NCBI GenBank assembly: GCA_030154265.1
Contig: JASKKH010000001.1
Location: forward strand, 14,443 to 78,442
Source of the DNA: Clostridia bacterium
GTDB taxonomy: Bacteria > Bacillota > DSM-521 > Neomoorellales > Neomoorellaceae
Length of the DNA: 64,000 nucleotides
Direction of reading: 5' to 3'
In this document: positions 22,659 through 61,940 of the stretch, piece after piece
Layout of the letters: each line of letters opens with the position of its first letter
Numbering within the stretch: position 1 is the stretch's first letter
Translations under genes and position numbers: made by a program
Notes under the pieces: model-generated
Database searches by the model: none
Seen by the model: only the letters and a program-made list of their open reading frames with translations
What the model was told of the DNA's origin: nothing

Positions 22659-22689
22659 AGTTTTATTCTGCCTCCAATTGGCAAAATTT

Positions 22690-29030: not shown

Positions 29031-29090
29031 CAATTCGTTACCAAAATCTATATCCCTCATCAATTCGTTACCAGAATCTATATTCCTCCT
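29031..29090. repeat. 30-bp tandem direct repeat (2 copies, 27/30 identical) in a divergent promoter region
   Basis: caattcgttaccaaaatctatatccctcat (29031-29060) and caattcgttaccagaatctatattcctcct (29061-29090). Confidence 0.9.
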
Positions 29091-44380: not shown

Positions 44381-44485
44381 GTTTGGTATTTTACCATATT
44401 ATTTATTTATTTGGTATATAATCCATTAAATATTTTTCAGGGGAATAGTATGAAATACCATCCCCCTGAAATTAAATTTATTAGT

Positions 44486-45838: not shown

Positions 45839-47241
45839 TATTCTTTGGCCTCCTCATCCAAAATACCACCAACAACCATTTCTGGAATGCGAATTGTTGG
45901 CTGAGCGTCACCAACTGGTACTCCCTGACCATCTTTACCACAGGTTCCAATAGCAAAACCCAGGTCACCAGCTACTCGGTCAATTTTCTTTAAAACTTCG
46001 GGCCCATTACCAGTAAGGGTCGCTCCACGAACAGCTGGACCGATACGTCCGTCTTCGATAAGATATCCTTCTGCAACATCGAAAACAAAATCTCCGTTGG
46101 TAGTGTTAACCTGCCCACCACCCATTCTTTTTACCAATAATCCTCTTTTAGTTTCCTTTAATATAGCTTCAGCATTATCTTTACCGGGAGCAATATAAGT
46201 ATTTGTCATCCTTGGAATAGGACGGTCCTGGTAAGATTCTCGACGTCCATTACCTGTAGAACGACGCCCTTCCTTACGTGCCGTAAGGTAATCGTACATA
46301 TACTCTTTTAAGATACCGTTTTCAATGAGTACGGTTTTTTGTCCAGGTGTTCCCTCGTCATCAAAGCGATATGAGCCATATTTACCTTCAATGGTAGCAT
46401 CATCAATAACAGTTACAAGTTCAGATGCTACTTTTTGTCCTTTTTTATTTGCATAGACAGATAGTTGTTTCTGTACTAAATCGGCCTCTAATCCATGACC
46501 ACAAGCCTCATGGATCATTGTACCGCCGGCTTCTGCAGACATCACTACAGGCATTTTCCCAGCAGGAGCAGGTTTAGCTTCAAGCATCATAACCGCCCTA
46601 CGAGCAGCTAGTCTAGCCTTTTCTTCCGGGTTTACACTTTCAAAAAGCTCCCAACCCTGTTGGCCACCACTAGACTCATAACCAGTCTGGATATGCCTGC
46701 CGTCAGAAGCCACAGCATTTACTACAAAACGACAGCGTACCCGTTCATCATCCACCAAAGTACCTTCACTATTAGCAATAGTAACTTCTTGGATAATATC
46801 ACTGTAACCTACAGTTACCTGAACAATTCGCTCATCCACCGCTCGGGCAGCATCATTGGCCTTCTTGACAAGATTCACTTTGTCCTCTATGGGCACCTCA
46901 TCAGGCCGTTTCTTTATGGTAAAATCCACGTTAGCCTTAGGCCGGGTAAAGTTAATTTCTTTAGCTCCGTTTTTGTTGGGGATGGCTTTACCGACCAGAG
47001 AAGCGAGTTCGATAAGACTATCAAGACTTAAATCGTTGCTATAGCCATAAGCCGTATTTTCACCACCAATTACCCTGATGCCAGCTCCCTCGTCTAAGCC
47101 AGAATTAACCCGCTCAATTTTATTATCTTCACAGCTAATACCATTAGTCCGACGTCTTTCTATATAGATTTCAGCAAAATCACCACCCTGTTCTAAGGCA
47201 GCTTTTAGGATAGCCTTTAAATCTGATTCTGATAAAAGCAT
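45838..47241 (-). CDS. tldD: TldD metalloprotease
   Basis: 467 aa TldD/PmbA family protein with metal site HEACGHGLE. Confidence 0.85.
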   Translation of the reverse strand: MLLSESDLKAILKAALEQGGDFAEIYIERRRTNGISCEDNKIERVNSGLDEGAGIRVIGGENTAYGYSNDLSLDSLIELASLVGKAIPNKNGAKEINFTRPKANVDFTIKKRPDEVPIEDKVNLVKKANDAARAVDERIVQVTVGYSDIIQEVTIANSEGTLVDDERVRCRFVVNAVASDGRHIQTGYESSGGQQGWELFESVNPEEKARLAARRAVMMLEAKPAPAGKMPVVMSAEAGGTMIHEACGHGLEADLVQKQLSVYANKKGQKVASELVTVIDDATIEGKYGSYRFDDEGTPGQKTVLIENGILKEYMYDYLTARKEGRRSTGNGRRESYQDRPIPRMTNTYIAPGKDNAEAILKETKRGLLVKRMGGGQVNTTNGDFVFDVAEGYLIEDGRIGPAVRGATLTGNGPEVLKKIDRVAGDLGFAIGTCGKDGQGVPVGDAQPTIRIPEMVVGGILDEEAKE

Positions 47242-47308
47242 CTACCCACCCCTTCTGTTAACTTTTTCCTAGTATAATTCAAGGGTGCTTAAAATATTCC
47301 TTCTAAAT

Positions 47309-48562
47309 TTACTTAAAATATACGCGCCCAAGGTCAACTATCAGGTTATTATAATCTCCAAAACCGCCTTCCCGCCATTCAACGTAAAAAGATAACTTCC
47401 GCCCAAAAAATACCGGTAACTCCAGATAACCAGGGTAGTCACCTGGTTTCAATATCCTCTGGTAAAGTTGCTTTCCATCAACCTTTACAGTTAAACAAGC
47501 AGCACCACTGGTATTACAGGTACTATCGTCTATCCCGACATAACCTGTCAGTCTGTCATATTTACGCTCTAAATCAACTGTTACTTCCGCCTTAGGGTCG
47601 TCTTTATTTAATTTAACGCTAATAGCATGGCTAAACTTTCTCCCAGCAATGGCTGCCGGTTTTCCTAATCTGAAAAAGGGGCCAACATTACGTAAAACCC
47701 GCAATTGCTGAAGCCAGACAATATCTTCTTCCCCAGTTACAGGTTTAAAATCCGAATCCTCTACCAGCTCTCCATTTTGTAGTAACGGAAAGGTGTAAAG
47801 TACTTTATTAGTTGTAACAGATAATTTTTGTCTATATTCAGAGTTCTCACTTGAATTATGGTCTTGATTCTGATTATTATTACTTGATTGATTTGCTAGA
47901 ACATTCTTATCATCAGTTTTTTCTTCTTCGTTTTTGTTATTGCTTACATTTACGGGAGGAACAAAACTGTTATATCTCCCTTTAGGATAGATAGCTAAAG
48001 GTCTGGCTTCTATTTTTGATTCTCCTGACTCATATAAGTCAACTAAAAACTTTGCTTCAACAGAAGAATTTTCTTTTAGGGAAACAATTTCTAAATCATG
48101 AATAGTCGTTAAAGCTGGTAATGATTCTAGCTGGGCTAAATAATTAACCAATGAAGGATAAGGCCCTTTAACAGTAACCCGATAAGGGTAAATCCTAAAA
48201 GATCCTTTTTTATCTATCATCTGAGGTTCAAATCCTAAAATCTCAACAGCTTCATCCGCTGGCTGCGCTGCTTGGATAAAAGCTGTTGTCCCTGTTAATG
48301 TTAAATCCAGGTGTTTTTTTACAGCATCCCAATCTGATTCTAACTGCTCCATCTTTTTATTTAATTCGGAAGCCTGAGATACTTCCCGTTTAACTTTGGC
48401 CAAACGTGCATTGGCAACTTGCAAATCATCTTTTAGCTGGCAGTAATGGGGCCACTGTTTAACCCAAAAAACCTGATAAAAAAGAACAAAACCTAATACG
48501 GCTACCAACAAACAAATCAGAATTTTTTCTCGCTGACTAAATTTGTAATTAATTAATTTCAT
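47309..48562 (-). CDS. pilO: PilO-like type IV pilus alignment protein fused to a C-terminal NPCBM-like beta-sandwich domain
   Basis: 417 aa with N-terminal TM, coiled coil and PilO/GspM-like core, an N/Q/S-rich linker, and a C-terminal 120 aa (GYVGIDDS...LTVKVDGKQLY...LSFYVEW...FGDYNNLIVDLGRVYF). Follows pilM-pilN. Confidence 0.65.
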   Translation of the reverse strand: MKLINYKFSQREKILICLLVAVLGFVLFYQVFWVKQWPHYCQLKDDLQVANARLAKVKREVSQASELNKKMEQLESDWDAVKKHLDLTLTGTTAFIQAAQPADEAVEILGFEPQMIDKKGSFRIYPYRVTVKGPYPSLVNYLAQLESLPALTTIHDLEIVSLKENSSVEAKFLVDLYESGESKIEARPLAIYPKGRYNSFVPPVNVSNNKNEEEKTDDKNVLANQSSNNNQNQDHNSSENSEYRQKLSVTTNKVLYTFPLLQNGELVEDSDFKPVTGEEDIVWLQQLRVLRNVGPFFRLGKPAAIAGRKFSHAISVKLNKDDPKAEVTVDLERKYDRLTGYVGIDDSTCNTSGAACLTVKVDGKQLYQRILKPGDYPGYLELPVFFGRKLSFYVEWREGGFGDYNNLIVDLGRVYFK

Positions 48563-48591
48563 GTTTTCTTTCCTGCCTTAGATTCCTCTAC

Positions 48592-49122
48592 CTAATTATT
48601 TTCGAAAACAGCCTCAATACTGAAAGTAAGGTTTTTGCCATTATGGCCCACTTTTTTAAGTGTTACAGTTTGCCAGTCACCGGTAGTTTGAAGGTTATTG
48701 ATAAAATCCCCCACTTCCTCGAGGGAAGTACTACCACCAATAAGGGTTAATAGCCCTTTAGATTTATCCTCTCTTAAGGTAGTTAACCATACACCTTCAG
48801 GTATATTTTGATTTATGGTAGTTAATATAACATGCCAGCTCCGACCTTCTTTTAAAATTTGTTGAAGCTCATTTTTCTTCTGTTGTAAACCCTTAATTTT
48901 AGCTTTTGTATCCTGAACCTTCTGGGCTTGAGGTAGATATAAGGCAATTTCATCCTTAACCCTGTTGACCTTCCTGGAAGTTAGCCACATATGACCGCAA
49001 AATATCAGATATAAAAGTAAAACTATTCCTATCAAAACAATAATTAACATATTTCTTCCGGACTTGACCCAGGGTGTTTTGGGAATAAATTCTGGAGGCA
49101 ATAAATTTATTTCTGTCTTCAT
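48592..49122 (-). CDS. pilN: Type IV pilus assembly protein PilN
   Basis: 176 aa with an EINLLPPEF N-terminal motif, one TM helix and a coiled coil. Confidence 0.82.
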   Translation of the reverse strand: MKTEINLLPPEFIPKTPWVKSGRNMLIIVLIGIVLLLYLIFCGHMWLTSRKVNRVKDEIALYLPQAQKVQDTKAKIKGLQQKKNELQQILKEGRSWHVILTTINQNIPEGVWLTTLREDKSKGLLTLIGGSTSLEEVGDFINNLQTTGDWQTVTLKKVGHNGKNLTFSIEAVFENN

Positions 49123-50018
49123 AATTTACGCCCCCTTAAAGCCAGGCCTATGGCCGTGGTAAGGTCAGGACTAACCTGATAATCTTGTATTCCAGGTCGA
49201 CCTGCCCCCGCTAATATACCAAGTTGTTCCTGACACTCAGCTATCAAACCTTCCATTTGCGCTATATCACCTGTAACAATTAAACGTTTCGGTTCAAAAC
49301 TTCTCTTTGACTGGGACCGTAAAAAAACTAAGGAACGTTGGATTTCCCTGGTTAACTCAAATGCCCCAGAAACAGGTGATTGAGTCAGTTCCTCTTTATT
49401 GATAGTTATTACGCGACTAAAAAGGGGTTGTCCATCTGCCACCAAAACTATATTGCCCCATTGACCACTGATATCCGTAATAATTACTTCACCACTAATA
49501 TCTTTTCTAAGAGCACGACAAAGAGCCAAAGGTACTAAATCAATAGCTGCTAAATCCAAGCCAGCTGACTTAAACAACTGATAAATTTGGTTAACCAGTT
49601 CTATAGGAGCTGCGGCCAGGATAATGGGCATTCTATTATCTGTCTGCTTCAAATTATTATCTAAAACTGCCCAATCAACTACCATATCCTGGACTCCAGT
49701 GGGTATATGGTTTTCTATTTCATAGGCCATACCTTCCTTTAACTCAGACTCAGACATACGAGGAAGGCTAAAATAGCGAACGATTACCATTTCACCAATA
49801 ACGGTAGTCACAGCCTGCCGACCCTTGTAGCCTAATTCTGATGCTACTTCAGCAATAGCTGCGACCATAGCATCAAAATCATCGAAACCTCCAGGCGGAG
49901 CTGGAACTCTAGCAGTCAATAATTCATTTCCCTGGTAAACAGCAGCCTTAATATTACCAGAGCCAATATCAATGCCTATCAAAGAGTTTCTAGGCGAAAA
50001 CAACCGGAGTAATTTCAT
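49119..50018 (-). CDS. pilM: Type IV pilus assembly ATPase-like protein PilM
   Basis: 299 aa with an actin-like fold (GIDIGSGNIKAA). Overlaps pilN. Confidence 0.85.
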   Translation of the reverse strand: MKLLRLFSPRNSLIGIDIGSGNIKAAVYQGNELLTARVPAPPGGFDDFDAMVAAIAEVASELGYKGRQAVTTVIGEMVIVRYFSLPRMSESELKEGMAYEIENHIPTGVQDMVVDWAVLDNNLKQTDNRMPIILAAAPIELVNQIYQLFKSAGLDLAAIDLVPLALCRALRKDISGEVIITDISGQWGNIVLVADGQPLFSRVITINKEELTQSPVSGAFELTREIQRSLVFLRSQSKRSFEPKRLIVTGDIAQMEGLIAECQEQLGILAGAGRPGIQDYQVSPDLTTAIGLALRGRKL

Positions 50019-50065
50019 ATTTCCTCCAAATCATATAAAATTAACTATAATAGTTAATCCAGTTA

Positions 50066-50387
50066 TAGCTTGTTGAATAATTATTTTAGGTGCTAAAGAA
50101 GGAAAAAACTATCGCGATCTGGTAATGGTAAAATCACAGCTAACACCAAGCCAGAAAGGATAGATTTACTTGATTTTAGCACTAAACATTACTCGTGAAA
50201 ACCCTCTATTTCAGTTATTTTCAAAAATCGATTTTCTTTTGCAAGGATTTAAGGAGAATTCTCCTAAGCCTACTCCTCGCCAAGGCAGACCCCAACTTTT
50301 TAGTGATGTACAAATTTAGAATTGACATTGATCAAGTACAAAATTAAGTAGTTTAACTTTACTGTGGGTTATTTATTCAACAAGCTA
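50066..50387. mobile_element. 322-bp MITE-like element bounded by perfect 15-bp inverted repeats
   Basis: tagcttgttgaataa (50066-50080) and its exact reverse complement ttattcaacaagcta (50373-50387). No ORF inside. The right IR supplies the stop codon of the transposase stub. Confidence 0.5.
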
Positions 50388-50447
50388 ATCACTTAAAAAA
50401 AGATAGAGCAAAAGTTCTTCATTTACGGTAATCTTATATTGAGCCAT
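50385..50447 (-). pseudogene. 20-codon N-terminal stub of an IS256/mutator-type transposase
   Basis: GAGGAGAATTGAA-ATG then MAQYKITVNEELLLYLFLSD*. This resembles the 'M.Q..ITLD.E.L..LF' start of mutator-family transposases and is cut off at the inverted repeat. Confidence 0.4.
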
Positions 50448-50770
50448 TTCAATTCTCCTCTCGTTAGTTTTTTTGCTAATTACTATTCTAACTGAGGAAT
50501 TTGTAAATGGCTCATTTTTTTAAGAAACTATTTTACACAATTATAAAAGCTTAACTTTAACATCGGCAGCCTAATTCAGTTGTCAAAGAGTTAAAAAAGA
50601 AAATTGACTATTAACAGGATTAGTATGCCCTTTTCTGAGAAAACACCAATCAATATCTAATGGCCTTTGTGCGTTAATGGGAAAATAAACCAAATTCATC
50701 CCTTTTACCATTAGCCGAACTTGTTGTCCTGTTCTAATTTTGGAATTATGCAAAACTCTCTATTAAGAAT

Positions 50771-52123
50771 TTAGTATATAGATGCATGATCCCATGATAG
50801 AATTTGTAGTCCTGTTTCATTAAATTTCGAGTACAATTCTTCAATTAAATCAGTTTTGTAGTTAATATCTAACTGACCTTTTATAAAACTTTTCCCTTTT
50901 TCATGCTTTAATTTGTTACTACTATCATCATTATCACCGTTTTCTTCAACCTCTGTTATTCCACCCGTTATTAAACAACCGTTTATGGTACTAGGCCCCC
51001 CTTGCTTATAAAAATAACCGTTATTCAATAGTAAGGCATCAACAGTAACATTACCATCTATACTTAAATCTCCACCTGCCACAAAAGCCCAGGCATCTTC
51101 TTCAGTAGCCGCTCTAATGTCATTCTCTATATCAATATCACCCGTTGCCGCAATAATAGCCTTACCTTGATAATTAAAAGTATCACTGGTATTACCCTTT
51201 CCGTTATGACCGTTGTTGTTATGACCGTTGTTGTTATGACCGTTGTTGTCCTCATCTTTTATAGTTAAATTTCCATTACAATAAAGTATTTTTATTTCAT
51301 CTGTAATGCCGTCCATTTTTTCTTGCAGTTCGGTTAGGGTATATTCACCAGGTTCAATTTGAAGCGAATAACTATTTGTGTAAGGTTCAACAAGGTTTGG
51401 TAAAACAGGAAATGGATAATTTATACCCTTGATCACCTGTCCATGAATAGTACCATAAATGTTAGGGTCATTTCCCCATTTATTTTGATAATGTCCTACA
51501 ATTGCATCTCCTTTAATGGTTCCATAATTATAAAGATTGCCCCAAGTAATAACACTACCATTAATATCAATTTTATGATGATGAATAGTTAAATCCCCAC
51601 CAGCAACTACATTAGTATATGGATCTTTCCAATTCCTTAACTCGACATCACCAGTTGCAAAAATATCACCATTAACTGTTACAGTATTCTTAATGACCAA
51701 GTCTCCATCAGTAACTAAGGCATAATCAGTAAATGGACGTGACAGTTCGACCTCAACGGCTCTCTTAATCCTATCCACTTCCGCTAGAGATCGTAAATGA
51801 TAGGTTGCTACCTGAGGTGTTAATTCAACACTTACGATTTTTCCTTTTGCCTGAGGTAAAAACGTTTCTCCGATATTAATCTGCTGACCTGGATTTTCAC
51901 GCAATTCAGCCAAGGCTAAATTTATACCTGCTTCAGCCAAATAAGTAGCTTGGGCTATTTTTACTTCATTGGCTGCAACACGCCTTTCCCCCATAGCCAG
52001 AGAAATTATCCCTGTACCTAATAATGAAAGTACTACAATTACCATTAATACAATCGGTAAGACACTCCCACTGTGTCTCCAATCTAAGTTGAAGGATAAG
52101 TTGTATCCTTTCTTTTTAACCAT
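50771..52123 (-). CDS. PilX-like pilus-associated protein with beta-helix-like repeats
   Basis: 450 aa with a PilX_N-like hydrophobic N-terminus (VLPIVLMVIVVLSLLGTGIISLAMGERRVAANE), repeated GD(L/V/I)xI segments, and an HNNNG repeat. Last gene of the minor-pilin block. Confidence 0.6.
   Translation of the reverse strand: MVKKKGYNLSFNLDWRHSGSVLPIVLMVIVVLSLLGTGIISLAMGERRVAANEVKIAQATYLAEAGINLALAELRENPGQQINIGETFLPQAKGKIVSVELTPQVATYHLRSLAEVDRIKRAVEVELSRPFTDYALVTDGDLVIKNTVTVNGDIFATGDVELRNWKDPYTNVVAGGDLTIHHHKIDINGSVITWGNLYNYGTIKGDAIVGHYQNKWGNDPNIYGTIHGQVIKGINYPFPVLPNLVEPYTNSYSLQIEPGEYTLTELQEKMDGITDEIKILYCNGNLTIKDEDNNGHNNNGHNNNGHNGKGNTSDTFNYQGKAIIAATGDIDIENDIRAATEEDAWAFVAGGDLSIDGNVTVDALLLNNGYFYKQGGPSTINGCLITGGITEVEENGDNDDSSNKLKHEKGKSFIKGQLDINYKTDLIEELYSKFNETGLQILSWDHASIY
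51201..51250. repeat. In-frame 15-bp tandem repeat (about 3 units) encoding (NNGHN)n
   Basis: cgttgttgttatgac at 51211-51225 and 51226-51240, with partial units on both sides. Confidence 0.9.
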
Positions 52124-52183
52124 AGTTCTGCCTCAACATCTTCTAACTCGAGTATTAGTTTCCTGAATTATAATATCCATCTA

Positions 52184-52693
52184 CTATTTCATTACTTTAA
52201 GCCTTAGAGCAACCGAAGTTGTAATCGAAAAATCTTGCTCTTCTTTTTCATCAGTAGTAACTATGTGAATAGTTACTACCTTGCTATTCTCTGGGTTATC
52301 TGGCTGGCTATAAGTAAACTTCAGGTCTTTAACCCCATAGGCAAGTAAATTGTAACCTCCAAAACTTAACGAACCTTTATTTTTAACCGCTTTTTGTAGA
52401 TTAGTGCCATCTAATTGATATTTGAATTGGTTACCAACCCCATCTTCCAAAATTAACACTTCTTCGTTAGATCCATTTACTATGGTCTTCGCGCAACTGA
52501 TTTCATTTACCATCCGTTCTAACGCAACTCGGGCATTCTGCTGAGCGTCAATGCTGTCCCAACTATGCTGCCACCATTTTAAACCATTGCCTAGAATGCT
52601 TAAAGCAGCAGTCATAACTATCGCCATTAGGCAGGCTGATAGTACTGCTTCTAATAAAGTAAAACCACCCTTTTGCCATTTCACGGTTCTCAC
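52184..52693 (-). CDS. Minor pilin (prepilin-type N-terminal cleavage/methylation domain), PilW-like
   Basis: 169 aa with leader MRTVKWQKGG followed by FTLLEAVLSACLMAIV. Confidence 0.75.
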   Translation of the reverse strand: MRTVKWQKGGFTLLEAVLSACLMAIVMTAALSILGNGLKWWQHSWDSIDAQQNARVALERMVNEISCAKTIVNGSNEEVLILEDGVGNQFKYQLDGTNLQKAVKNKGSLSFGGYNLLAYGVKDLKFTYSQPDNPENSKVVTIHIVTTDEKEEQDFSITTSVALRLKVMK

Positions 52694-53076
52694 GGCCAGT
52701 TGGCAACTAGTGTTGCCAATTTCACCTGCCCTGTTGGATTTTTAATCGGTCGTACCGTTACAATTACTTCTTTAATTTCCTTTAAAGAATCATAATCTAA
52801 AACCACAACTTTATATTCATAATCAGCATTAACTGGGCTAACTTGCCAATCAGGTATTTCAGTTAAGTTATCATAGCCGGCTGCCAAACATTTTTCTAAT
52901 CTATCCCTCGCCAGATTTAATGCTACTGTATCTTCCCTTCCCCTTGAATAAGCTTTTGCTCCTGTGGTGAACATTCCTAGCATCGGAGCTAAAGCAACTA
53001 TCAGTAAAACCGATGCCACTAGCACTTCAATAAGAGTCAAGCCCCTATCATTTATGTAATACTTAAACTGTTTCAT
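52690..53076 (-). CDS. Minor pilin, PilV-like
   Basis: 128 aa with leader ...NDRG followed by LTLIEVLVASVLLIVAL. Confidence 0.75.
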   Translation of the reverse strand: MKQFKYYINDRGLTLIEVLVASVLLIVALAPMLGMFTTGAKAYSRGREDTVALNLARDRLEKCLAAGYDNLTEIPDWQVSPVNADYEYKVVVLDYDSLKEIKEVIVTVRPIKNPTGQVKLATLVANWP

Positions 53077-53564
53077 GTGCTATCTCCTGCCTTAACCCGA
53101 CCAGTCACCGGTAAAACAGTTATATAGTAGCGTCTACCATAGCAATCTTTAAGTACAATATCCCCACTACCAGAAGGGACCCCTTTAAGATTGAAAGCAA
53201 GTTTATTATCAGAGAAAGCCACACTATCAAAGCTTATACCAACAGGTAATTTGGTCTCTTCAATAATAACCGCATCTTTCCTGATCCGATACAATTGATT
53301 TGTGGTATCAAAAAGTATTGTACGGTGATAATCCTCACCACTAATAGCCATTTGCTGGACTGAACGAATATCGTTTATAAGCTGCCAGGCAGCCGTTTGC
53401 ATACGCCACCAAGTTAAACTCTTTTTTACCATTGGAAAAGTTGCTGTTGCCAACAAACCGATTATAGTTATAACTAAAAGTAATTCAATTAAGGTAAAAC
53501 CTGAAGACTTTTTGTTTAGTACTTTTATATGTGCTGCTTTTACCTTAATTAGCCTTGCAATCAC
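53073..53564 (-). CDS. Minor pilin, FimT/GspH-like
   Basis: 163 aa with leader ...NKKSSG followed by FTLIELLLVITIIGLLA. Confidence 0.75.
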   Translation of the reverse strand: MIARLIKVKAAHIKVLNKKSSGFTLIELLLVITIIGLLATATFPMVKKSLTWWRMQTAAWQLINDIRSVQQMAISGEDYHRTILFDTTNQLYRIRKDAVIIEETKLPVGISFDSVAFSDNKLAFNLKGVPSGSGDIVLKDCYGRRYYITVLPVTGRVKAGDST

Positions 53565-54121
53565 TTTAATCCCTCGTTATGACAGTGTAGCAACTTTAAA
53601 TGAGAGAACCGCGGAAATAACAAAAACACCATTCCCAAGTATAATTCTAAAGGATTGGGGTTGATAAAGGTAGCATTAATCCGTCCAGCTTTAATAAATA
53701 GGTATTGTAAAATTCCAAAAGAGGCAACTAAAAAACCGGCAAGAATAAAAATAGTAAAGATTTTATCTATCTCTTTTTTACCAAAGGTAGTTCGAACCTG
53801 CCAGTATACTAATAAATATAAAACTGTCCGCATAATTTCGTTAACTGTGCTATTAACATCTACTGACCAAAAGAGACCAATTGACATCCAAACTAAAAAA
53901 AGTAGCCCCAGCCAAAAGGGACTATTTTTATCCGAAACTCCTTTATTGCGGCAACTAAGTAAAGCCAGGAAGCCTCCTAAAGCTCCCAATAAAAAGCCCA
54001 CCAACTGGATGTGTGTAGGATATCCATTAGATATTAATGGTGAAGCCCCAGCCAACAGCATCACTATTGGTAGAACCGGATGCTGCTTAGTTTCAAGTGG
54101 GATACACTTATTTCCCTGCAT
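53561..54121 (-). pseudogene. N-terminal fragment of an O-antigen ligase (Wzy_C/PilO-TfpO-like) membrane protein
   Basis: 186 aa. The TM pattern with LFWSVDVNST and ATFINPNPLELYLG matches the first third of O-antigen-ligase-family proteins. The catalytic loop region is absent and the ORF runs into the next gene (ATGA overlap). Confidence 0.45.
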
Positions 54122-54150
54122 ATTAAACTTCCTCTAAAACAAATACGAAA

Positions 54151-54897
54151 CTAGAAAAACAAATTTATATACCATTCAATAATTCCTTCGCCCCATAAAA
54201 CAGTAATAATAGTTCCTAAAGCCATGAATGGGCCAAAGGGAATTGCATCACGAAGACCTTTACGCCCTAAAGTCATTAATAAAAGTCCAAATAGGGCTCC
54301 TAATAAGGCCGATAAGAACAGTGCTAATAATACCTGCTTCCAGCCAAGAAAAAGTCCCAGAACAAAACCTAGCTTCACATCACCGCCACCCATACCACCA
54401 CGGCTGACAATAGCTAATAATAAGGGTAAGCCTCCACCCAAGAAACCCCCTATAAGTGCTGCCTGCCAGGAAATATCACCAAAGGGCAAGAATATTAAAC
54501 CTAATCCAATGCCAATTAAGATTAAAACATCAGGAATGGTGTATGTAATAAGATCGATACCGGACATAACTAGAAGCAGTGATACTAAATCAATATATTT
54601 AACTGTAACTAAATTAGGCCCATTTTGAAGATACAAAACAATATAAAGCCCTGCCGTTAAAACCTCTATACCAGGATACCACCAAGGCACTTTTGTGCCA
54701 CAGCTAGGACAACGACCCCGACACAAAATAAAGCCCAAAAGGGGGATAAGCTCCCCCACCCCAAGGCGCCGCCCACAGGCGTCGCAGTGGGATGGCGGGA
54801 AAACTATCGACTCCCCTCGTGATAAACGGGTAATACATAGGCCTAAAAAACTCCCTATAGTAAATCCCAATACAGCTATTAAAATTAAAGTTTCCAT
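54151..54897 (-). CDS. pilD: Prepilin peptidase (A24)
   Basis: 248 aa with Cys pairs CDACG...CPSCG, and catalytic Asp regions (GIDLITYTIPD, GMGGGDVKL). Confidence 0.9.
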   Translation of the reverse strand: METLILIAVLGFTIGSFLGLCITRLSRGESIVFPPSHCDACGRRLGVGELIPLLGFILCRGRCPSCGTKVPWWYPGIEVLTAGLYIVLYLQNGPNLVTVKYIDLVSLLLVMSGIDLITYTIPDVLILIGIGLGLIFLPFGDISWQAALIGGFLGGGLPLLLAIVSRGGMGGGDVKLGFVLGLFLGWKQVLLALFLSALLGALFGLLLMTLGRKGLRDAIPFGPFMALGTIITVLWGEGIIEWYINLFF

Positions 54898-54982
54898 TTT
54901 TAAAACTCTAAAGTATTATTATTACTCATTATTAGTAGGTGGACAGTAGACTGTTTCTCCATTATATTCGTACCACCTCCTA

Positions 54983-56185
54983 TTAACTTATACCACCAAA
55001 CACTGATAACATTGGAAGTAATATCGATATTACCACTAAGGCAACAACGCCACCTAAAGAAATAATTAATATGGGTTCAATAAGAGAGGATAATCGAGAC
55101 ACTGCCTCGTTTACTTCTCGTTCGTAAAAAACACTTATTTTGGTTAAAAGCTCATCCAAAGCTCCTGTTTCTTCCCCTACACTAATCATCTCTACTACCA
55201 TAGGTGGTAAAATACCACTTGCTTGTAAAGGTGTCGCTAAACTCTCACCATCTCTAACGCTCGTTTCCGCCATACCAATAGCTTCAGCAAGTACTACATT
55301 TCCAACAACCCGTCGGACTATCTCTAAAGCTGTTAACACCGGTACACCACTCTTAATTAGTGTCCCTAAAGTACGACAAAAACGAGCAACACCCATTTTA
55401 TGGATAAGAGACCCGAATATCGGCAATTTTAATAAAAATCTATCAAACCAATATCGTCCCTCTGGATTTTGGCGTAAGAACTTAAGCCCAAAAATGCCAC
55501 CAATAACAAACAATAAAATCAGTGGCCATAAGTATCGAAATAACTCACTTATAGCTAACACTGATCGTGTTAGCCATGGTAACGGAACGTTCATATCATT
55601 TAATATGGTTTCAAATGTTGGCAATACAAAAATCAACAAAAAGATAACTGCTAAAACAGCTACAACACTAACAAAAGCCGGATATGTCATGGCTGATTTA
55701 ACTTTTTCCTCAATTTCATGTTCCCGTTCCAAGTGTTCAGAAAGACGTTCCAGGTTATCATCAAGGGAACCCGCCAGTTCTCCAGCCTCAACAGTATGAA
55801 TAACCAGAGGTGGAAAAATTTTCGTTTCCTTTTCCAGAGCTCTGTAAAAAGACTCACCTGACTCTAAACTAATCAGAATTTTCCCAATACTGCCTCGTAG
55901 TAAATCCTTTTCTACTTGTTTATGCAGAACATGTAAAGCTGAAATAATCGGCAAGCCAGCTTGTAACATAGTTGCCAGTTGGCGACAAAAAACAGCCAAA
56001 TCATGCCTATTTACTGCTTGCTGAAAGAGCTGTCGCTTTCGAGATTGAGAGGTAACGGCCTTGCAAGAAGTAACAAAAATACCTTTTTGACGCAACTCCA
56101 TTACGGCCTCTTCCTGACTTGCTGCCTCAATTGTCCCGCCTACAACCTCCCCATTGGCATTCCGCCCCCGGTAGGCAAAATTCAT
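54983..56185 (-). CDS. pilC: Type IV pilus platform protein PilC
   Basis: GspF-family double-domain membrane protein. Start placed at MNFAYRGRN (ATG 56185, GGAGG Shine-Dalgarno). The longer ORF to 56356 would read through the riboswitch and terminator. Confidence 0.88.
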   Translation of the reverse strand: MNFAYRGRNANGEVVGGTIEAASQEEAVMELRQKGIFVTSCKAVTSQSRKRQLFQQAVNRHDLAVFCRQLATMLQAGLPIISALHVLHKQVEKDLLRGSIGKILISLESGESFYRALEKETKIFPPLVIHTVEAGELAGSLDDNLERLSEHLEREHEIEEKVKSAMTYPAFVSVVAVLAVIFLLIFVLPTFETILNDMNVPLPWLTRSVLAISELFRYLWPLILLFVIGGIFGLKFLRQNPEGRYWFDRFLLKLPIFGSLIHKMGVARFCRTLGTLIKSGVPVLTALEIVRRVVGNVVLAEAIGMAETSVRDGESLATPLQASGILPPMVVEMISVGEETGALDELLTKISVFYEREVNEAVSRLSSLIEPILIISLGGVVALVVISILLPMLSVFGGIS

Positions 56186-56202
56186 AAAGATCCTCCGAAC
56201 AT

Positions 56203-56335
56203 AAAAATCAAAAAGCCACCGATAGCAGTGGAAAATATGACATTCCCGGCAGCTCGGCGACCATGGAACTCGTCTACAGGCCCGTAGCTTTGCGTCCCTG
56301 ACTTTCGCCAGGTTTGCCCTAAACAGAAATGTTAA
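56203..56335 (-). promoter_or_regulatory. c-di-GMP-I (GEMM-I) riboswitch with intrinsic-terminator expression platform
   Basis: Minus strand reads AGGGCAAACCUGGCGAAAGUCAGGGACGCAAAGCUACGGGCCU..., matching the conserved GGCAAACC-stem-GAAA-stem-GGGACGCAAAGCC.CCGGGCCU core of GEMM-I (compare the Vibrio Vc2 aptamer). It is followed by CCACUG-CUAU-CGGUGG and CUUUUUGAUUUUU (56203-56232), 18 nt before the pilC ATG. Confidence 0.8.
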
Positions 56336-56340
56336 TAGAT

Positions 56341-56368
56341 AAATATTTACAATCAAATATTTACAATC
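56341..56368. repeat. Perfect 14-bp tandem duplication just upstream of the riboswitch
   Basis: aaatatttacaatc at 56341-56354 and 56355-56368. Confidence 0.9.
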
Positions 56369-56422
56369 ATATTCTGTTTTTTTAACATGAATCCTGCCAT
56401 TTTGTCTAAAATTTACTTATAG

Positions 56423-57430
56423 TTAACCTTTAGCAGTAATTAATCCTTTTTGTTCCAGTTTCTTTAAGGACATTTCCATGGTTTGCATACCAAAGCGACC
56501 GCCTGTTTGCATACTTGAGATTATCTGATGAGTTTTGCCCTCACGAATAAGGTTCCTAATTGCCGGAGTAGCAACTAAAACCTCTACCGCTGCAACCCGT
56601 CCTTTTCCATCTTTACGTTTTAATAACTGTTGGGTAATAACACCTTCCAAAGTATCAGCCAATTGTACCCGGATTTGAGATTGCTGGTGAGGTGGAAAGA
56701 CATCGATAATTCGGTCAATACTTTGTACGGCATTATTGGTATGTAATGTTGCCAAAATAAGATGGCCTGTTTCGGCTGCAGTTATAGCTGTAGCAATGGT
56801 TTCCAAGTCACGTAACTCACCCACCAAAATTACATCAGGGTCCTGACGTAAAGCTGCCCGTAAAGCATTCGCAAAGGAATGTGTATCTGTACCTACTTCC
56901 CTTTGATTAACGATACTATTACGGTGCTGATGTAAATATTCTATTGGATCCTCCAGGGTTATAATGTGACAGCTTCGCTCACGATTTATTTTATCTACTA
57001 TGGCTGCCAGAGTAGTTGACTTACCACTCCCCGTCGGCCCCGTAACTAATACCAATCCGTGTTGCTTTTCAGCTAGTTCAGACACTATCGGGGGTAGTCC
57101 TAACGTATCCAAACCGGGTATGCTTCTAGCAATAACACGAATAGCTGCACCAATACTTCCCCTTTGATAAAAAACATTAACCCGATATCGACTTATTCCC
57201 GGAAGGGAATAGGCCATGTCCAGTTCTCCTCGTTCTTGTAAGTCTCCCCACTTTTCTCCTACCATGGGACGCAATAGTTCTGTTGCTGTTTCCGGGGTTA
57301 ATGAATCCCATTGGTTTTGGATTTTAAGTTCTCCATGCACCCTAAATATCGGGGGTAATCCAACAGATAGATGTACATCAGAAGCCCCTGCATCAACAGC
57401 AGACTGAAGGATTATACCAATATCAACCAA
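56423..57430 (-). CDS. pilT: Twitching-motility retraction ATPase PilT
   Basis: 335 aa with ASDVHL, Walker A GPTGSGKSTT, Asp box, Walker B and His box (GHLILATLHTN). TTG start with a G6 Shine-Dalgarno. Confidence 0.9.
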   Translation of the reverse strand: MVDIGIILQSAVDAGASDVHLSVGLPPIFRVHGELKIQNQWDSLTPETATELLRPMVGEKWGDLQERGELDMAYSLPGISRYRVNVFYQRGSIGAAIRVIARSIPGLDTLGLPPIVSELAEKQHGLVLVTGPTGSGKSTTLAAIVDKINRERSCHIITLEDPIEYLHQHRNSIVNQREVGTDTHSFANALRAALRQDPDVILVGELRDLETIATAITAAETGHLILATLHTNNAVQSIDRIIDVFPPHQQSQIRVQLADTLEGVITQQLLKRKDGKGRVAAVEVLVATPAIRNLIREGKTHQIISSMQTGGRFGMQTMEMSLKKLEQKGLITAKG

Positions 57431-57518
57431 CTATATCCCCCCATGAGTAAGGCTTAATTACCGAGACCTCATGGACAGCCGCCTTTTAAACCTGTAAGGA
57501 CCAAACTTAATTATTTAG

Positions 57519-57560
57519 GAAAAAATAAGTCATATGACCAGTTACTGAAGACATATGACT
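57519..57560 (-). terminator. Intrinsic terminator between pilB and pilT
   Basis: Minus strand reads agtcatatg-(15 nt)-catatgact followed by tatttttt. Confidence 0.6.
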
Positions 57561-57619
57561 AGTCATAATCCTTTCCCATATCGGCAGCAGCCTGAGATCC
57601 TTACTTAATATCTATTTCT

Positions 57620-59263
57620 TTAAATACCTCCAAAGGAAACTCGTAAAACCTCAGCAACTGTTGTAATCCCACGACGTACTTTTTCTAACCCATCATCCAT
57701 TAGAGTAACCATACCCGAAGCAAGAGCTGCCTCTTTAATAGCACTGGCTGGTGCCTTTTGGGCTACCAGTTTGCGTAGTTCTGCATTCATTACCAGGACC
57801 TCATGGATAGCCGTACGTCCTGTATAACCTGAATAATGACACTCCTTACAGCCTCGGCCCCGATAAAGTCTTGATACCTCTGGTAACCATATTTTTTCCA
57901 AGGAATCTTGTTCTGGCTGATATTCCTCTCGACAATGAGGGCAAATACTACGTACAAGTCTTTGGCTTACTACACCTATAACAGAAGAATTTACAAGGTA
58001 TGGCTCTACCCCCATATCTAATAGACGGGTTATCGCTCCTGCCGCGTCATTGGTATGTAAAGTACTAAATACCAAATGCCCTGTTATTGCTGCGCTGACA
58101 GCAATTTCGGCAGTCTCTTTATCACGAATTTCCCCGACCATTATAATATCTGGATCCTGACGTAATATTGAACGTAGTCCGGAAACAAAAGTCAGACCTG
58201 CTTTGAGATTTACCTTAACTTGATTAATCCCTGGCAGTGTATATTCTACAGGGTCCTCAATAGTAATTATATTCCTGTCTGGTGAACTTAAGGTATTAAG
58301 GGTAGCATAAAGGGTAGTCGTTTTCCCACTACCTGTAGGGCCGGTAATTAAAACCATTCCGTAAGAACTTCTAATCAAACTAATATAACGTTGTTTTTTA
58401 TCTGGTAGAAAACCCAGCTTTTCTAAGGGTAAAAGCATGACATTCCGGTCAAGTATTCTTAAGACTACCTTTTCACCGTAAACAGTTGGTAAGCTAGATA
58501 CCCGCAAATCAATACGTTTTCCAAGATTAAATTGAAAACGTCCATCCTGAGGCAGGCGTTTTTCAGCAATATCCATACCGGCTAGGATTTTAATTCGAGA
58601 AATTAAATTACTTAACATATCTAAAGGAACATAAGTTAAATCACGTAACAAGCCATCAATCCGTAGACGTATACGAACTTTACGCTCCTGAGGTTCAATA
58701 TGAATATCACTGGCCTTTACCTTAATAGCTTCTTTAATAATATGGTTAACGAAACGCACTACAGGTGCTTCCTCGTCTTCGTCATTTAAAACCGTTGCCG
58801 TTGTTGCCACTTCAGTCATACCCGTCTCAATCTCATCCTGCCAAAACCTATTTATTGCTGCTTCAATTTCTTCTTCAGAAGCAATAGCTGGTAGTATATC
58901 TCTCCCGCAAACCCTCCTAAGGTCATCTAAAGCTAATAAGTTTAGAGGGTCGGCCATGGCCACTAATAAACGATTACCTTCTTGGCGGATAGGAATAGCT
59001 TGGTATCGTCTAGCTAAGCCTTCTGGTACTAAGCGTACCACTTCGGGTTTAAGCTTATATTCACTTATATTAACTTTTGGAATTCCCAATTGAAATTCCA
59101 AAACCTCTAGCATTTGGGCTTCCTTAATAAAACCCAATCGAATTAAAACCTTTCCCAAACGTTCCCCAGTTCGTTTTTGTTCAGCCAGAGCCTGTTGTAA
59201 CTGGTTATCAGTAATCATTCCAGCCTCAACTAATAAATCCCCTAGCCGCCTGCGGCTATCCAT
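57620..59263 (-). CDS. pilB: Type IV pilus assembly ATPase PilB with MshEN-type N-terminal domain
   Basis: 547 aa GspE family protein with Walker A GPTGSGKTTT, a tetracysteine motif CPHC...CKEC, and tandem RLGxxLLxxG... motifs at the N-terminus. Confidence 0.92.
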   Translation of the reverse strand: MDSRRRLGDLLVEAGMITDNQLQQALAEQKRTGERLGKVLIRLGFIKEAQMLEVLEFQLGIPKVNISEYKLKPEVVRLVPEGLARRYQAIPIRQEGNRLLVAMADPLNLLALDDLRRVCGRDILPAIASEEEIEAAINRFWQDEIETGMTEVATTATVLNDEDEEAPVVRFVNHIIKEAIKVKASDIHIEPQERKVRIRLRIDGLLRDLTYVPLDMLSNLISRIKILAGMDIAEKRLPQDGRFQFNLGKRIDLRVSSLPTVYGEKVVLRILDRNVMLLPLEKLGFLPDKKQRYISLIRSSYGMVLITGPTGSGKTTTLYATLNTLSSPDRNIITIEDPVEYTLPGINQVKVNLKAGLTFVSGLRSILRQDPDIIMVGEIRDKETAEIAVSAAITGHLVFSTLHTNDAAGAITRLLDMGVEPYLVNSSVIGVVSQRLVRSICPHCREEYQPEQDSLEKIWLPEVSRLYRGRGCKECHYSGYTGRTAIHEVLVMNAELRKLVAQKAPASAIKEAALASGMVTLMDDGLEKVRRGITTVAEVLRVSFGGI

Positions 59264-59299
59264 TAATCCCCTCTCCTCATTCTTTGGATTTATTAAGCC

Positions 59300-60385
59300 T
59301 TAATTGGTTTCTTTTTGTATTACTGCCATTACTTCATCAATAATTACAGGTAAAATTTCTACCTTGCCCAGTTTAGTAGGTAAAATCATATGTAGTTTGT
59401 TGTTATAAACTTTTTTATCATGACATAGGGCTGCTTTAAATTCTTCCCGATTAAATTTTGGTACATCCACTGGTAAGTTAGCTTCTTTAATCAATTTTAC
59501 TAACCGGTCAGCTTCAGCTTCCGTAAACATCTCCTTCTTAACAGCTAAACGTACTGCAGCAGCCATACCTATAGCCACCGCCTCGCCATGCCGATAAGTA
59601 ACATAGCCGGTAACTGTTTCCACAGCATGACCAACACTATGACCAAAGTTTAAAATAGCCCTTAGATTATCCTCTCGTTCATCTTTAGCCACTATATCAG
59701 CTTTAATGGCACAACACCTTAAAACTATCTTTTCCAAAATTTCCGTTTGTCCGGCCAAAGCTCCCTTTAAATTTTCTTCTAGGAATGCAAAAAATTCCGC
59801 ATCAGCTATTACCCCGTACTTAATAACTTCTGCCAATCCGGCTCTAATTTCTCTCTTGGGTAAAGTTCTAAGAGTTGACAGATCAGCAATCACAGCTCTC
59901 GGTTGATAAAAAGCCCCTATAAGATTTTTCCCCTCAGGGTGATTAACAGCCACCTTGCCTCCAACGCTAGCATCAACTTGAGCAAGAAGAGTTGTAGGTA
60001 TTTGGATAAAAGGTACACCTCTTAACCATGTGGCAGCAACAAAACCGGTTAAATCCCCCACTACGCCGCCACCTAAAGCAATAATAGCCGATTTCCGGTC
60101 AATACCGGCTTTTAAGGCAGCATCATATAATTCAGAAGCAACCTTAAGGCTTTTAGCATCCTCACTATCTGGTACTAAAACAAGCTCAGTTTTAAAACCT
60201 GAGGTTATCAGGCTTTTCTCCAAATGAGGCCAATAAAGGTCAGCAACCGTACTATTACTTATTACAAGACAGGTACTAGCAAGATTTAAAGGTTTTAGAA
60301 TAGAGCCTACATTTTGTAATAATTCGGGACCACAATGAATTTTATAAGCTCGATTTCCTAGAGCTACTTCAAGTTCTCCAGCCAA
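59300..60385 (-). CDS. aroB: 3-dehydroquinate synthase
   Basis: 361 aa with GGGVVGDLTGF, PTTLLAQVDASVGGK and HGEAVAIG motifs. Confidence 0.93.
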   Translation of the reverse strand: MAGELEVALGNRAYKIHCGPELLQNVGSILKPLNLASTCLVISNSTVADLYWPHLEKSLITSGFKTELVLVPDSEDAKSLKVASELYDAALKAGIDRKSAIIALGGGVVGDLTGFVAATWLRGVPFIQIPTTLLAQVDASVGGKVAVNHPEGKNLIGAFYQPRAVIADLSTLRTLPKREIRAGLAEVIKYGVIADAEFFAFLEENLKGALAGQTEILEKIVLRCCAIKADIVAKDEREDNLRAILNFGHSVGHAVETVTGYVTYRHGEAVAIGMAAAVRLAVKKEMFTEAEADRLVKLIKEANLPVDVPKFNREEFKAALCHDKKVYNNKLHMILPTKLGKVEILPVIIDEVMAVIQKETN

Positions 60386-60885
60386 GGTTCTAAGGCCTCC
60401 TTTATTTCCCCGGCTACTGCAGCCGCATCTTTCTGGTCAGTATCTATATGTAAATCAGCAAAGGAATAATAAGATTGTCTTTTCTCTATTAATTTTGTAA
60501 TGTTAGATAAATCTTGATTTTTAAGTAGAGGCCTGCCGTCATCGGCTCCTACTCTGTCAACAACGGTTTCCGGCCTAACTTTAAGCCAAACTACTTTATT
60601 ACCTGGTTTTAAGTTCTTAACGTTTAATTTTGAGAGGACAGCTCCACCACCGGTAGCAATAACTGTTCTACTAACCACCAAAGTTCGACTAACAGCTTTC
60701 TCTTCTAAATCTCGGAAGTATTTCTCGCCGTATTTAGCAAAAATCTCTTTAATAGAAATTCCGACTTTCTGTTCAATCATGGCATCCGTATCAAGATATC
60801 GCCAACCAAGTTCCTTAGCTAAAATTTGCCCTATAGTCGACTTGCCACTCCCCATAAAACCGATTAATACAATATTTCCAGGCAT
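60364..60885 (-). CDS. aroK: Shikimate kinase
   Basis: Walker A GFMGSGKSTIG. Start placed at MPGNIVL (ATG 60885). The ORF extends to 60927. Confidence 0.88.
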   Translation of the reverse strand: MPGNIVLIGFMGSGKSTIGQILAKELGWRYLDTDAMIEQKVGISIKEIFAKYGEKYFRDLEEKAVSRTLVVSRTVIATGGGAVLSKLNVKNLKPGNKVVWLKVRPETVVDRVGADDGRPLLKNQDLSNITKLIEKRQSYYSFADLHIDTDQKDAAAVAGEIKEALEPWLENLK

Positions 60886-60965
60886 TTTTCCACCCTTATT
60901 AATATTTATAAATTGAGGATTTTGCAAATTTTTCAGACTGGATTTTACGGATATTTTGAAGGGTA

Positions 60966-61940
60966 AAAAAAGGACTTCACCCCTTAATCTGCCGAATTCA
61001 TAAGTGACATAAAAAACAAATTCAGCGAGATGAAGTCACTTATGAATATTCGACAAATGTGCCTTTTCTCCTTCGAAGATGCATTATATGTTTCATCATA
61101 ACCCCAATAAACCATACTGTAGCCCATGGAACATACTGGAGCTGCATTTTCATCTAAACCTTCGGGGGGCGCATATGCCCCTCTTGGATTAATAGAAATG
61201 ATGACTTGAGCCTTTAATTCCTCATATACTTTCCTGTATATCTCTTTAACGTCATATCCTTTGTCCATTATGTAATTCTTAACAACAAATGTATCACCGT
61301 AAGTTTCTTTAAGATATTCCATTAAAGGTATAGCCATGGTGCTATCATATGCGTTTGCAGGGGTTACTTCTACGGCAATCGGCAGTTCTCCCCTGGTATC
61401 TACCGTAACATGTAATTTAAAACCAAACCATTTTATTTGATTACCATTGGTACCTTTTTTTGGAACCCAAATTGGATTTTGCCATCGTCTACCATTTTGG
61501 ATTTAAGAACCGCTTTATCGTAAGATTCATATTCACTTGAATCGATAGCTACATCATTACCCTCTATAATACCGAGACTTTTTGCTTGTAGAACAATAGT
61601 CTCAAACATCTTTTGGACAGTATCAGATTTAGAAAGTGCCTTGATTAATCTACTACAGTTTTAATGTCCTCTATTCGCATGGCAATAAGTGCAAGAAACA
61701 TAGCTTCTTCAGAATATCCTTTTCTACCGACATCTTTTGATTTCGGCAGTAACTTCAATATCTTGCATAAATCTAAAGTATAGAAGACCTTTTCAAGTCT
61801 TGTTTGAGGTTGAAAATTTAATATTTCCCCGAAGGAAAGAAAGGTTTTCTGTCGAATATACATAAGTGGATTTCACTCCTTTTTGTTGGATTTTATTTCC
61901 ACTTATATATTCGACATTCAGGGGTGAAATCCATTTTTTA
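60966..61940 (-). mobile_element. Degenerate, rearranged IS element (DDE transposase, IS5/IS1182-like): frameshifted copy plus an opposed second 5' end
   Basis: Terminal inverted repeats aaaaaaggacttcacccct (60966-) and aggggtgaaatccatttttt (61919-61938). The transposase is split over at least 3 frames: MYIRQKTFLSFGE...GRKGYSEEAM, then ...VAIDSSEYESY..., then ...DKGYDVKEIY... The left end carries a second, inward-facing gene start (ATGAATATTCGACAA at 61040-). Confidence 0.7.

Follow-up and report, generated by a model that had tools for sequence, protein, structure and literature searches.

A predicted class I c-di-GMP riboswitch in the pilC leader of a type IV pilus gene cluster from a Clostridia bacterium

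What occupies the spacer between the motor gene pilT and the platform gene pilC, and how it might govern the genes that follow, are the questions raised by a type IV pilus cluster on a 64-kb stretch of DNA from a Clostridia bacterium (64,000 nucleotides, 38.4% GC; hereafter, the window). Read along the minus strand and assigned with Pfam, the genes run in the order aroK, aroB, pilB, pilT, a spacer of 237 nt, pilC and pilD, followed by three prepilin-like genes together with a PilX_N gene, pilM, pilN, a pilO-like gene, tldD/pmbA, and aroQ. The pilus genes considered here are:

57620-59263, minus strand: pilB (Pfam T2SSE and MshEN)
56423-57430, minus strand: pilT, the upstream motor gene and a Pfam-confirmed neighbour
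54983..56185, minus strand: pilC, encoding a platform protein of 400 aa (two Pfam T2SSF domains, E 1.1e-59), the predicted first regulated gene
54151..54897, minus strand: pilD, encoding a prepilin peptidase (Pfam A24_N_bact and Peptidase_A24)
50771..53564, minus strand: minor-pilin block, encoding prepilin-like proteins of 163, 128 and 169 aa and a PilX_N protein of 450 aa (Pfam N_methyl, PilX_N and a weak ComGF match)

The pilC gene is preceded by a Shine-Dalgarno sequence (GGAGG at 56192-56196), and its product shares 64% identity with PilC of Moorella glycerini; the nearest named PilC homologues are those of Moorella and Neomoorella (59-64% identity). The exact protein was otherwise found only in one assembly from raw reads; these matches and the GC content point to a low-GC relative of Moorellaceae as the source. 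An earlier, sequence-only reading of this DNA had proposed that a class I c-di-GMP riboswitch in the spacer gates pilC and the pilin genes downstream of it. Pilin genes are present there as minor pilins, and the proteins of that block carry G-F/L-T-L-[IL]-E motifs; the major pilin gene, however, which follows pilC in every relative described below, is missing from the window, and only three prepilin-like ORFs were found within the 64 kb. A 186-aa ORF after pilD corresponds to the N-terminal quarter of a Wzy_C/TPR protein of 660 aa in M. glycerini, with 57% identity. Lacking the major pilin gene and having a truncated Wzy_C gene, the pilus cluster of the window looks partly eroded.

The minus strand of 56203-56335 reads exactly as the sequence-only reading had quoted it (UAGGGCAAACCUGGCGAAAGUCAGGGACGCAAAGCUACGGGCCUGUAG...), and the hairpin and U-tract described there are both present. 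A scan of the whole window with Rfam release 15 at gathering (curated) thresholds returned two matches only, one to the c-di-GMP-I clan and one to OLE RNA. The OLE RNA match lies elsewhere in the window; that to the c-di-GMP-I clan falls in the pilT-pilC spacer:

56244..56327, minus strand: c-di-GMP class I (GEMM-I) aptamer (Rfam clan CL00126; best family RF03167, 69.9 bits against a threshold of 59, E 1.7e-14)

This match is far beyond chance and full-length, covering model positions 1-80 of 80, and a separate covariance model constructed for this analysis (R1) scored the window aptamer at 91.7 bits.

Placement of this aptamer between pilT and pilC is not unusual in close relatives, as it was found in 12 of 12 distinct loci representing at least five genera. 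The relatives comprise Neomoorella sulfitireducens, Neomoorella humiferrea, Moorella glycerini, Moorella naiadis, Moorella sp. E306M, Moorella sp. Hama-1, one assembly from raw reads, a Thermoanaerobacteraceae MAG, Thermanaeromonas toyohensis, Thermosediminibacter oceani, a Tepidanaerobacteraceae MAG, and a Desulfovirgula MAG; their 12 pilC leaders and that of the window constitute the 13-sequence set referred to hereafter. The aptamer was absent from the examined pilC loci of Desulforamulus, Bacillus and Paenibacillus, and from those of many other phyla. At three actinobacterial loci, a related aptamer is situated downstream of pilC, where it precedes a pilin gene in both of the loci with a readable downstream ORF.

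Alignment to the covariance model organizes the RNA as two adjacent hairpins closed by helix P1. The first consists of a 2-bp and a 6-bp stem with a 3-nt internal loop, and it is capped by a GAAA tetraloop; an AAA linker then leads to a second hairpin with a shortened tip. The linker is read in the window as GACGC-AAA-GCU, and exceptions to it number only two in 322 GEMM examples (PMC1950547). In the second hairpin, CCUGUAG...CAUGG takes the place of the 11-nt tetraloop receptor CCUAAG...UAUGG while the GAAA loop is present, a substitution common to the window and the Moorella group. The existence of possible novel tetraloop receptors among GEMM RNAs was noted in 2007 (PMC1950547), and a side possibility is that CCUGUAG...CAUGG serves as an uncharacterised receptor of the GAAA tetraloop. 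The shortened tip and the replacement of the usual receptor are counted against the explanation favored below, and docking is thus predicted at most.

With the Rfam-derived structure of 21 pairs imposed on the 13-sequence alignment, standard pairs fill 97% of the pair cells, compared to 24-54% when the partners are slid. Two pairs of the first hairpin have changed on both sides (CG/UA in five sequences and GC/CG in one). Covariation is thin because the 13 leaders are closely related, and hence the covariance-model score constitutes the main evidence for the aptamer. Little variation among the sequences also accounts for a de novo RNAalifold consensus of the 13 leaders that partly differs from the Rfam-derived structure, the latter being used for the pair counts.

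In the Vibrio cholerae Vc2 RNA, which derives from the tfoY leader and serves as the class I structural reference, the ligand is contacted by G20, A47 and C92, and a universally conserved inter-helix pair is formed between C44 and G83 (PMC4744006, PMC6140456). All five have equivalents in the window, G20 at 56318, A47 at 56291, C92 at 56249, C44 at 56294, and G83, a bulged G, at 56258, and each of them is invariant across the 13 pilC leaders (alignment A2). Vc2 differs from the window element in possessing a full second hairpin with the canonical receptor and in its gene context; a preprint describes it as an off-switch (bioRxiv 10.1101/617340). The canonical pocket nucleotides and the Rfam match together bear out the proposal of a GEMM-I-type c-di-GMP aptamer between pilT and pilC. 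Judged by its nucleotides, the window aptamer is a canonical class I (GEMM-I) aptamer, and it is predicted to bind c-di-GMP.

The family name assigned by Rfam invites a different view of the ligand. The best-scoring family at the aptamer is RF03167 (c-di-GMP-I-GGC) and not RF01051; a second family of clan CL00126 overlaps it and also exceeds its own threshold, with a lower score than RF03167. Trimming of P1 left RF03167 at the top for the core with 57.4 bits and RF01051 below that value (the gathering score of RF01051 is 35 bits). The core consensus lines of the two families differ at one position only, GACGCAAAgC in RF01051 and GACGCGAAgC in RF03167, which is that of A47 in Vc2; from these two lines it was deduced that "GGC" denotes G, G and C at positions 20, 47 and 92 as opposed to the canonical G, A and C. 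An RF03167 GGC variant sensing something other than c-di-GMP would be consistent with the rank of RF03167 as top clan member, at 69.9 bits against its 59-bit threshold, and with the 59-75 bits attained on the same model by genuine metagenomic G47 RNAs. At this core segment, however, the window reads GACGCAAAGC, with A following GACGC, and the variant-defining G47 is absent from the window and from all 12 relatives. Nor do the Rfam models for RF01051 and RF03167 follow nucleotide 47. Because eight relatives with A47 are likewise labelled RF03167, and RF01051 is the label given to a G47 RNA whose tetraloop receptor is intact, the RF03167 label stems from the short receptor-less tip of the second hairpin and not from the pocket. 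That tip and an explicit P1 are the features common to the window and the RF03167 variant; their difference lies at position 47, and the metagenomic G47 RNAs are unlinked to pil genes, with none of 69 examples adjoining pilC, pilT or pilD. A GGC variant with another ligand is thus very improbable. The 3',3'-cGAMP riboswitch (GEMM-Ib), whose fold family is that of the window aptamer, is an extremely improbable identity for it, as A replaces G20 in GEMM-Ib RNAs (PMC6140456) whereas the window (at 56318) and all of the relatives have G. Leaving aside the tetraloop receptor, which is unusual, and the RF01051 score, the defining features of class I that were tested are present in the window, and the defining nucleotides of the GGC variant and of GEMM-Ib are not. 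A caution for annotation follows: clan competition in Rfam names canonical A47 pilC leaders "GGC," and the family name alone does not equate to altered ligand specificity.

Upstream of the aptamer, the spacer of the window contains two further features:

56369..56397, minus strand: candidate sigma-H-type promoter (-35 element GCAGGATTC at 56389-56397, 11-nt spacer, -10 element ACAGAATAT at 56369-56377)
56341..56368, minus strand: tandem duplication of the 14-mer GATTGTAAATATTT (two copies), read from the sequence, between the -10 element and the aptamer

One motif, GCAGGAWTT, 11 nt and GGCGAATWA, is common to the region preceding the aptamer in spacers that are otherwise divergent. The candidate in the window fits the published sigma-H consensus, RNAGGAWWW / RNNGAATWW (PMC8510167), with a spacer of 11-12 bp, except that the last base of the -35 element is C instead of W; the window contains three matches to the sigma-H-type motif vs. 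0.48 expected by chance. When a relaxed pattern (RNAGGAWW-N12-RNNGAAWW) was sought within 80 nt upstream of the aptamer, it was found with constant spacing in 10 of the 13 leaders (that of the window and nine of the 12 relatives), and it occurs only six more times on both strands of the 1.59 Mb retrieved. At the Desulfovirgula locus, a sigma-A-like promoter, TTGACT-17-TAAGAT, takes the place of this motif. In relatives, 10-14 nt separate the end of the -10 element from the aptamer, which would thus form the very 5' end of the transcript. The corresponding distance is 41 nt in the window because of the GATTGTAAATATTT duplication, which adds approximately 28 nt to its leader and is found in none of the leaders of the 12 relatives.

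Given the conserved promoter motif just upstream, the riboswitch most likely forms the 5' leader of a distinct pilC transcription unit, and the match to the consensus suggests that this promoter would depend on sigma-H. A terminator scan identified no terminator-like site from the pilT stop codon up to the aptamer, and hence read-through RNA from pilB-pilT would also meet the aptamer. The internal gate into pilC, pilD and the minor pilins proposed by the sequence-only reading is therefore plausible but incomplete, as the conserved sigma-H-type promoter would make the riboswitch the leader of a separate pilC unit.

The elements that would comprise the expression platform, and the aptamer strand that they may compete for, are:

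56253..56262, minus strand: 3' strand of the second aptamer hairpin, GGUCGCCGA, which doubles as the 5' arm of a predicted long terminator hairpin
56231-56216, minus strand: local hairpin CCACUG-CUAU-CGGUGG (5' arm CCACUG at 56226-56231, 6 bp, -6.0 kcal/mol)
56214..56222, minus strand: terminator 3' arm, UCGGUGGCU, whose partner is either the aptamer 3' side (long hairpin) or the local CCACUG
56203..56214, minus strand: U-tract of the intrinsic terminator, UUUUUGAUUUUU, located from the sequence and a terminator scan

The tract following the local hairpin reads CUUUUUGAUUUUU (56215-56203, minus strand), and 17 nt separate the end of the U-tract from the pilC ATG at 56185. In the unconstrained minimum-energy fold, GGUCGCCGA pairs with UCGGUGGCU before the U-tract (-17.9 to -19.5 kcal/mol), and the long hairpin so formed spans 56262-56214. 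Its -19.5 kcal/mol compares with the -6.0 kcal/mol that is left when the aptamer is enforced, under which condition only the local CCACUG/CGGUGG hairpin persists (-6.0 kcal/mol at 37 C and -2.5 at 60 C). At the top of the long stem, the window has A:U where Moorella has G:C; both sides have changed and the outer stem is preserved.

Equivalent folds were obtained with the relatives. [quoted passage not shown] The 5' arm CCACUG of the local hairpin is absent in all 12 relatives. Accordingly, of the terminator described in the sequence-only reading, the U-tract terminator after the aptamer is retained and the CCACUG hairpin as its core is not, this arm being specific to the window and the hairpin amounting to -6.0 kcal/mol. 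The registers in which the 3' side of the aptamer is paired differ by lineage, the same logic being reached through different solutions.

An initial shuffle control, based on the free minus the aptamer-enforced fold, was uninformative because nearest-neighbor energies disfavor the aptamer fold whatever the platform, and a control confined to the platform and the 3' end of the aptamer was used instead. Complementarity between the last 22 nt of the aptamer and the platform was above that of all 300 shuffles in seven relatives, and in three more it was reached by <1% of shuffles. With the window alone, the gain was -7.3 vs. -5.3 +/- 2.6 kcal/mol, a value reached by 19% of shuffles and thus in the range of chance. 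The nearest-neighbor energies are also to be counted against the favored explanation, at -25.3 kcal/mol for non-aptamer folds vs. -13.7 kcal/mol for the aptamer alone; such a preference is common when a model leaves the energy of tertiary structure and ligand out of account. Taking the family as a whole, the predicted folds make a transcriptional ON switch highly probable. For this particular window sequence, the ON direction leans mainly on homology, given that the window-only control lies within chance, and it is advanced as rather likely.

The explanation favored for the locus, and one that is considered probable, is that of a canonical class I ON riboswitch leading a pilC-pilD-minor-pilin transcription unit within the type IV pilus cluster. 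It has direct support in the identity of the aptamer, its pocket nucleotides, its conserved position, the conserved promoter motif, and the mutually exclusive folds. Transcription would most likely start at the sigma-H-type promoter in the pilT-pilC spacer, with read-through RNA from pilB-pilT passing the element as well. In the absence of c-di-GMP, UCGGUGGCU would pair with the 3' strand of the second hairpin of the aptamer to generate the long terminator hairpin, and polymerase would stop 17 nt before pilC. With c-di-GMP bound in the pocket of G20, A47 and C92, the aptamer would keep this strand, only the weak local hairpin of 6 bp could form, and polymerase would read on into pilC. Predicted by this model are ligand binding, dependence on sigma-H, which way the element switches, and how much transcription reads through. 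The local hairpin, as modelled, can form with ligand bound, and it might then terminate some transcripts independently of the ligand.

Two other accounts of the locus were weighed against this ON switch. According to the wiring of the sequence-only reading, the element is an intra-operon gate on pilB-pilT read-through, with the local hairpin acting as a terminator that is freed by ligand, i.e., an OFF switch. The local hairpin and U-tract do exist in the window, the hairpin forms with the aptamer enforced (-6.0 kcal/mol), and read-through transcripts would encounter the element with no terminator intervening after pilT. Yet the 3' side of the aptamer is an alternative partner of the same 3' arm, at the same U-tract, in a hairpin three times more stable (-19.5 kcal/mol), and termination, not read-through, would consequently be expected of the ligand-free state; as the two alternative hairpins share one U-tract at their end, the OFF logic is left without an anti-terminator. 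The absence of the local 5' arm from 12 of 12 relatives and the conserved promoter motif between pilT and the aptamer argue further against this gate, which is considered unlikely. The same low probability is given to the other account, in which an intact-looking aptamer is followed by an expression platform that has drifted, with a weak inner stem and a new local hairpin, to leave a decaying or constitutively terminating remnant. Such decay would be in keeping with the non-significant window-only shuffle control, the loss of the major pilin gene and of most of the Wzy_C gene, and the 28-nt duplication inserted in the leader. Against it, all of the conserved core nucleotides of the aptamer are intact, as is the promoter motif; the outer stem of the terminator has been kept by a two-sided change; and pilB, pilT, pilC, pilD, the minor pilin genes, and pilMNO are all full-length ORFs.

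The ON riboswitch proposed here has clear precedents. Among the genes regulated by GEMM RNAs, Weinberg et al. listed pulF of the PilC family, and they recognized an ON design in 78 of 322 examples, wherein ligand stabilizes the aptamer, the overlapping terminator is blocked, and expression rises (Weinberg et al., 2007, PMC1950547). GEMM elements preceding pulF-family or pilus genes and terminators overlapping the aptamer have thus been known since that time, and with the arrangement kept across at least five genera, the contention that the locus represents a different wiring is not sustained. The window element shares with the 2007 GEMM (RF01051) riboswitches whose terminator overlaps the second hairpin the two-hairpin aptamer, GAAA tetraloop, and AAA linker; it differs from them in the short tip of its second hairpin, with CCUGUAG...CAUGG replacing the 11-nt receptor, in its location in a pilus cluster behind a sigma-H-type promoter, and in its extra weak local hairpin. 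A c-di-GMP riboswitch also governs Gram-positive type IV pili in Clostridioides difficile, where a class II element is located upstream of pilA1 (Bordeleau et al., 2015, as cited in PMC6916266). The C. difficile element has a fold unrelated to that of the window element, and the gene that it precedes is that of the major pilin, not pilC. In the literature searched, no paper was found on a pilT-pilC spacer with a class I element or on its sigma-H-type promoter. The pilT-aptamer-pilC placement and the sigma-H-type promoter are incremental details. In C. difficile, the pilA1 element promotes read-through at high c-di-GMP.

A further point of contact with c-di-GMP may exist at the protein level. 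[quoted passage not shown] Both motifs being present, binding by PilB of the window is predicted; the MshEN ATPases are protein-level receptors and as such are separate from the riboswitch. Owing to these motifs, c-di-GMP probably acts both on PilB, the extension motor protein, and on the mRNA that encodes the platform protein, peptidase, and minor pilins.

These findings on the pilC leader do not overturn current understanding; rather, the window extends a known theme, that of pilus genes under the control of c-di-GMP riboswitches. A broader proposal, made tentatively and with somewhat less than even confidence, is that the cluster is divided into two regulatory halves, a split kept in several genera of Moorella-like anaerobes, with pilB and pilT carried on the aroK-aroB transcript while the platform, peptidase, and pilins would require both the sigma-H promoter and the c-di-GMP ON riboswitch, and c-di-GMP would act again at the MshEN motifs of PilB. 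If true, this would represent a two-tier, AND-gated control of pilus assembly that is undescribed for class I riboswitches. Sigma-H conveys a stationary-phase or sporulation signal. The riboswitch combined with the conserved sigma-H-type promoter thus predicts that expression of the platform and pilins would need both a growth-phase signal and c-di-GMP.

The pilus cluster as a whole is set amid shikimate-pathway genes, with aroK-aroB upstream and aroQ downstream (43928-60927, minus strand). The gap between aroB and pilB is just 36 nt, a spacing that suggests co-transcription of the motor genes with the aro genes. The order aroB-pilB-pilT is maintained in most of the close-relative pilC loci; an exception is the T. 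oceani locus (L090), where an acetyltransferase gene lies upstream of pilB.

In the pilC leader, a repeat that was not found in the leader of any relative lies between the class I c-di-GMP aptamer and the sigma-H-like -10 element, and hence the leader of the window is predicted to be approximately 28 nt longer. The sigma-H-type promoter pattern was matched at two other sites; neither is backed by conserved context, and both may be chance matches.

56341-56368, minus strand: two perfect tandem copies of the 14-mer GATTGTAAATATTT
29062-29089, minus strand: sigma-H-type promoter pattern upstream of the gene (28097-28939) that encodes a DHODB-type Fe-S/FAD electron-transfer subunit
61831-61858, plus strand: sigma-H-type promoter pattern upstream of the thiE-thiM region

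The pilC leader of Desulfovirgula (L005, 3837-4003) differs in having a sigma-A-like promoter, TTGACT-17-TAAGAT, in place of the sigma-H motif, and a different expression platform; its terminator, UCCAGGCGCGUCGCCUGGA (-13.1 kcal/mol), is strong, stands alone and does not overlap the aptamer. In three actinobacterial type IV pilus loci, class-I-like aptamers scoring 49-56 bits with our own covariance model were located 3' of pilC. The aptamers of L071 and L035 directly precede pilin genes, and L035 contains several tandem pilin paralogues.

L035, 6821-6895: class-I-like aptamer downstream of pilC
L053, 6176-6252: class-I-like aptamer downstream of pilC
L071, 5383-5460: class-I-like aptamer downstream of pilC

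The Rfam models RF01051 (canonical) and RF03167 (GGC variant) did not sort sequences by nucleotide 47 (L096, 638-721; L001, L081-L087 and L090, with aptamers at about 3850-3950). Leaders of pilC with A47 receive the GGC-variant label, and a G47 RNA whose tetraloop receptor is intact is assigned to the canonical family; annotations made automatically for the c-di-GMP-I clan can thus mislead on ligand specificity.

A major pilin gene lies just 3' of pilC in all nine relatives with gene calls, and directly between pilC and pilD in most of them. In the window, the pilC-pilD gap is only 85 nt (54898-54982), and a major pilin gene is absent both there and across the whole 64 kb, where the only prepilin-like ORFs are the three minor-pilin genes (52184-53564). 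In Moorella glycerini, pilD is followed by a gene for a 660-aa Wzy_C/TPR membrane protein, of which only the N-terminal 170 residues are matched by a 186-aa ORF of the window (57% identity, E 2e-54); the ORF is probably a truncated remnant. A terminator-like site (53924-53903) also falls within it. Between the PilX-like gene and pilM, some 750 nt (50019-50770) hold no ORF of at least 60 aa on either strand and no Rfam match at gathering thresholds. Elsewhere, a full-length OLE RNA is consistent with an anaerobic or extremophilic Firmicute host.

53561-54121, minus strand: 186-aa ORF matching the N-terminus of a Wzy_C/TPR membrane protein
22687-23298, minus strand: OLE (ornate large extremophilic) RNA, full length, with a score of 485.8 bits and E 1.8e-139
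59093-59251, minus strand: two tandem 24-residue MshEN-type c-di-GMP-binding motifs, PilB residues 5-57

The PilB motifs, RLGDLLVEAGMITDNQLQQALAEQ and RLGKVLIRLGFIKEAQMLEVLEFQ, are separated by five residues, and their presence predicts that c-di-GMP would have a second input, at the protein level, to the same pilus system as the riboswitch.
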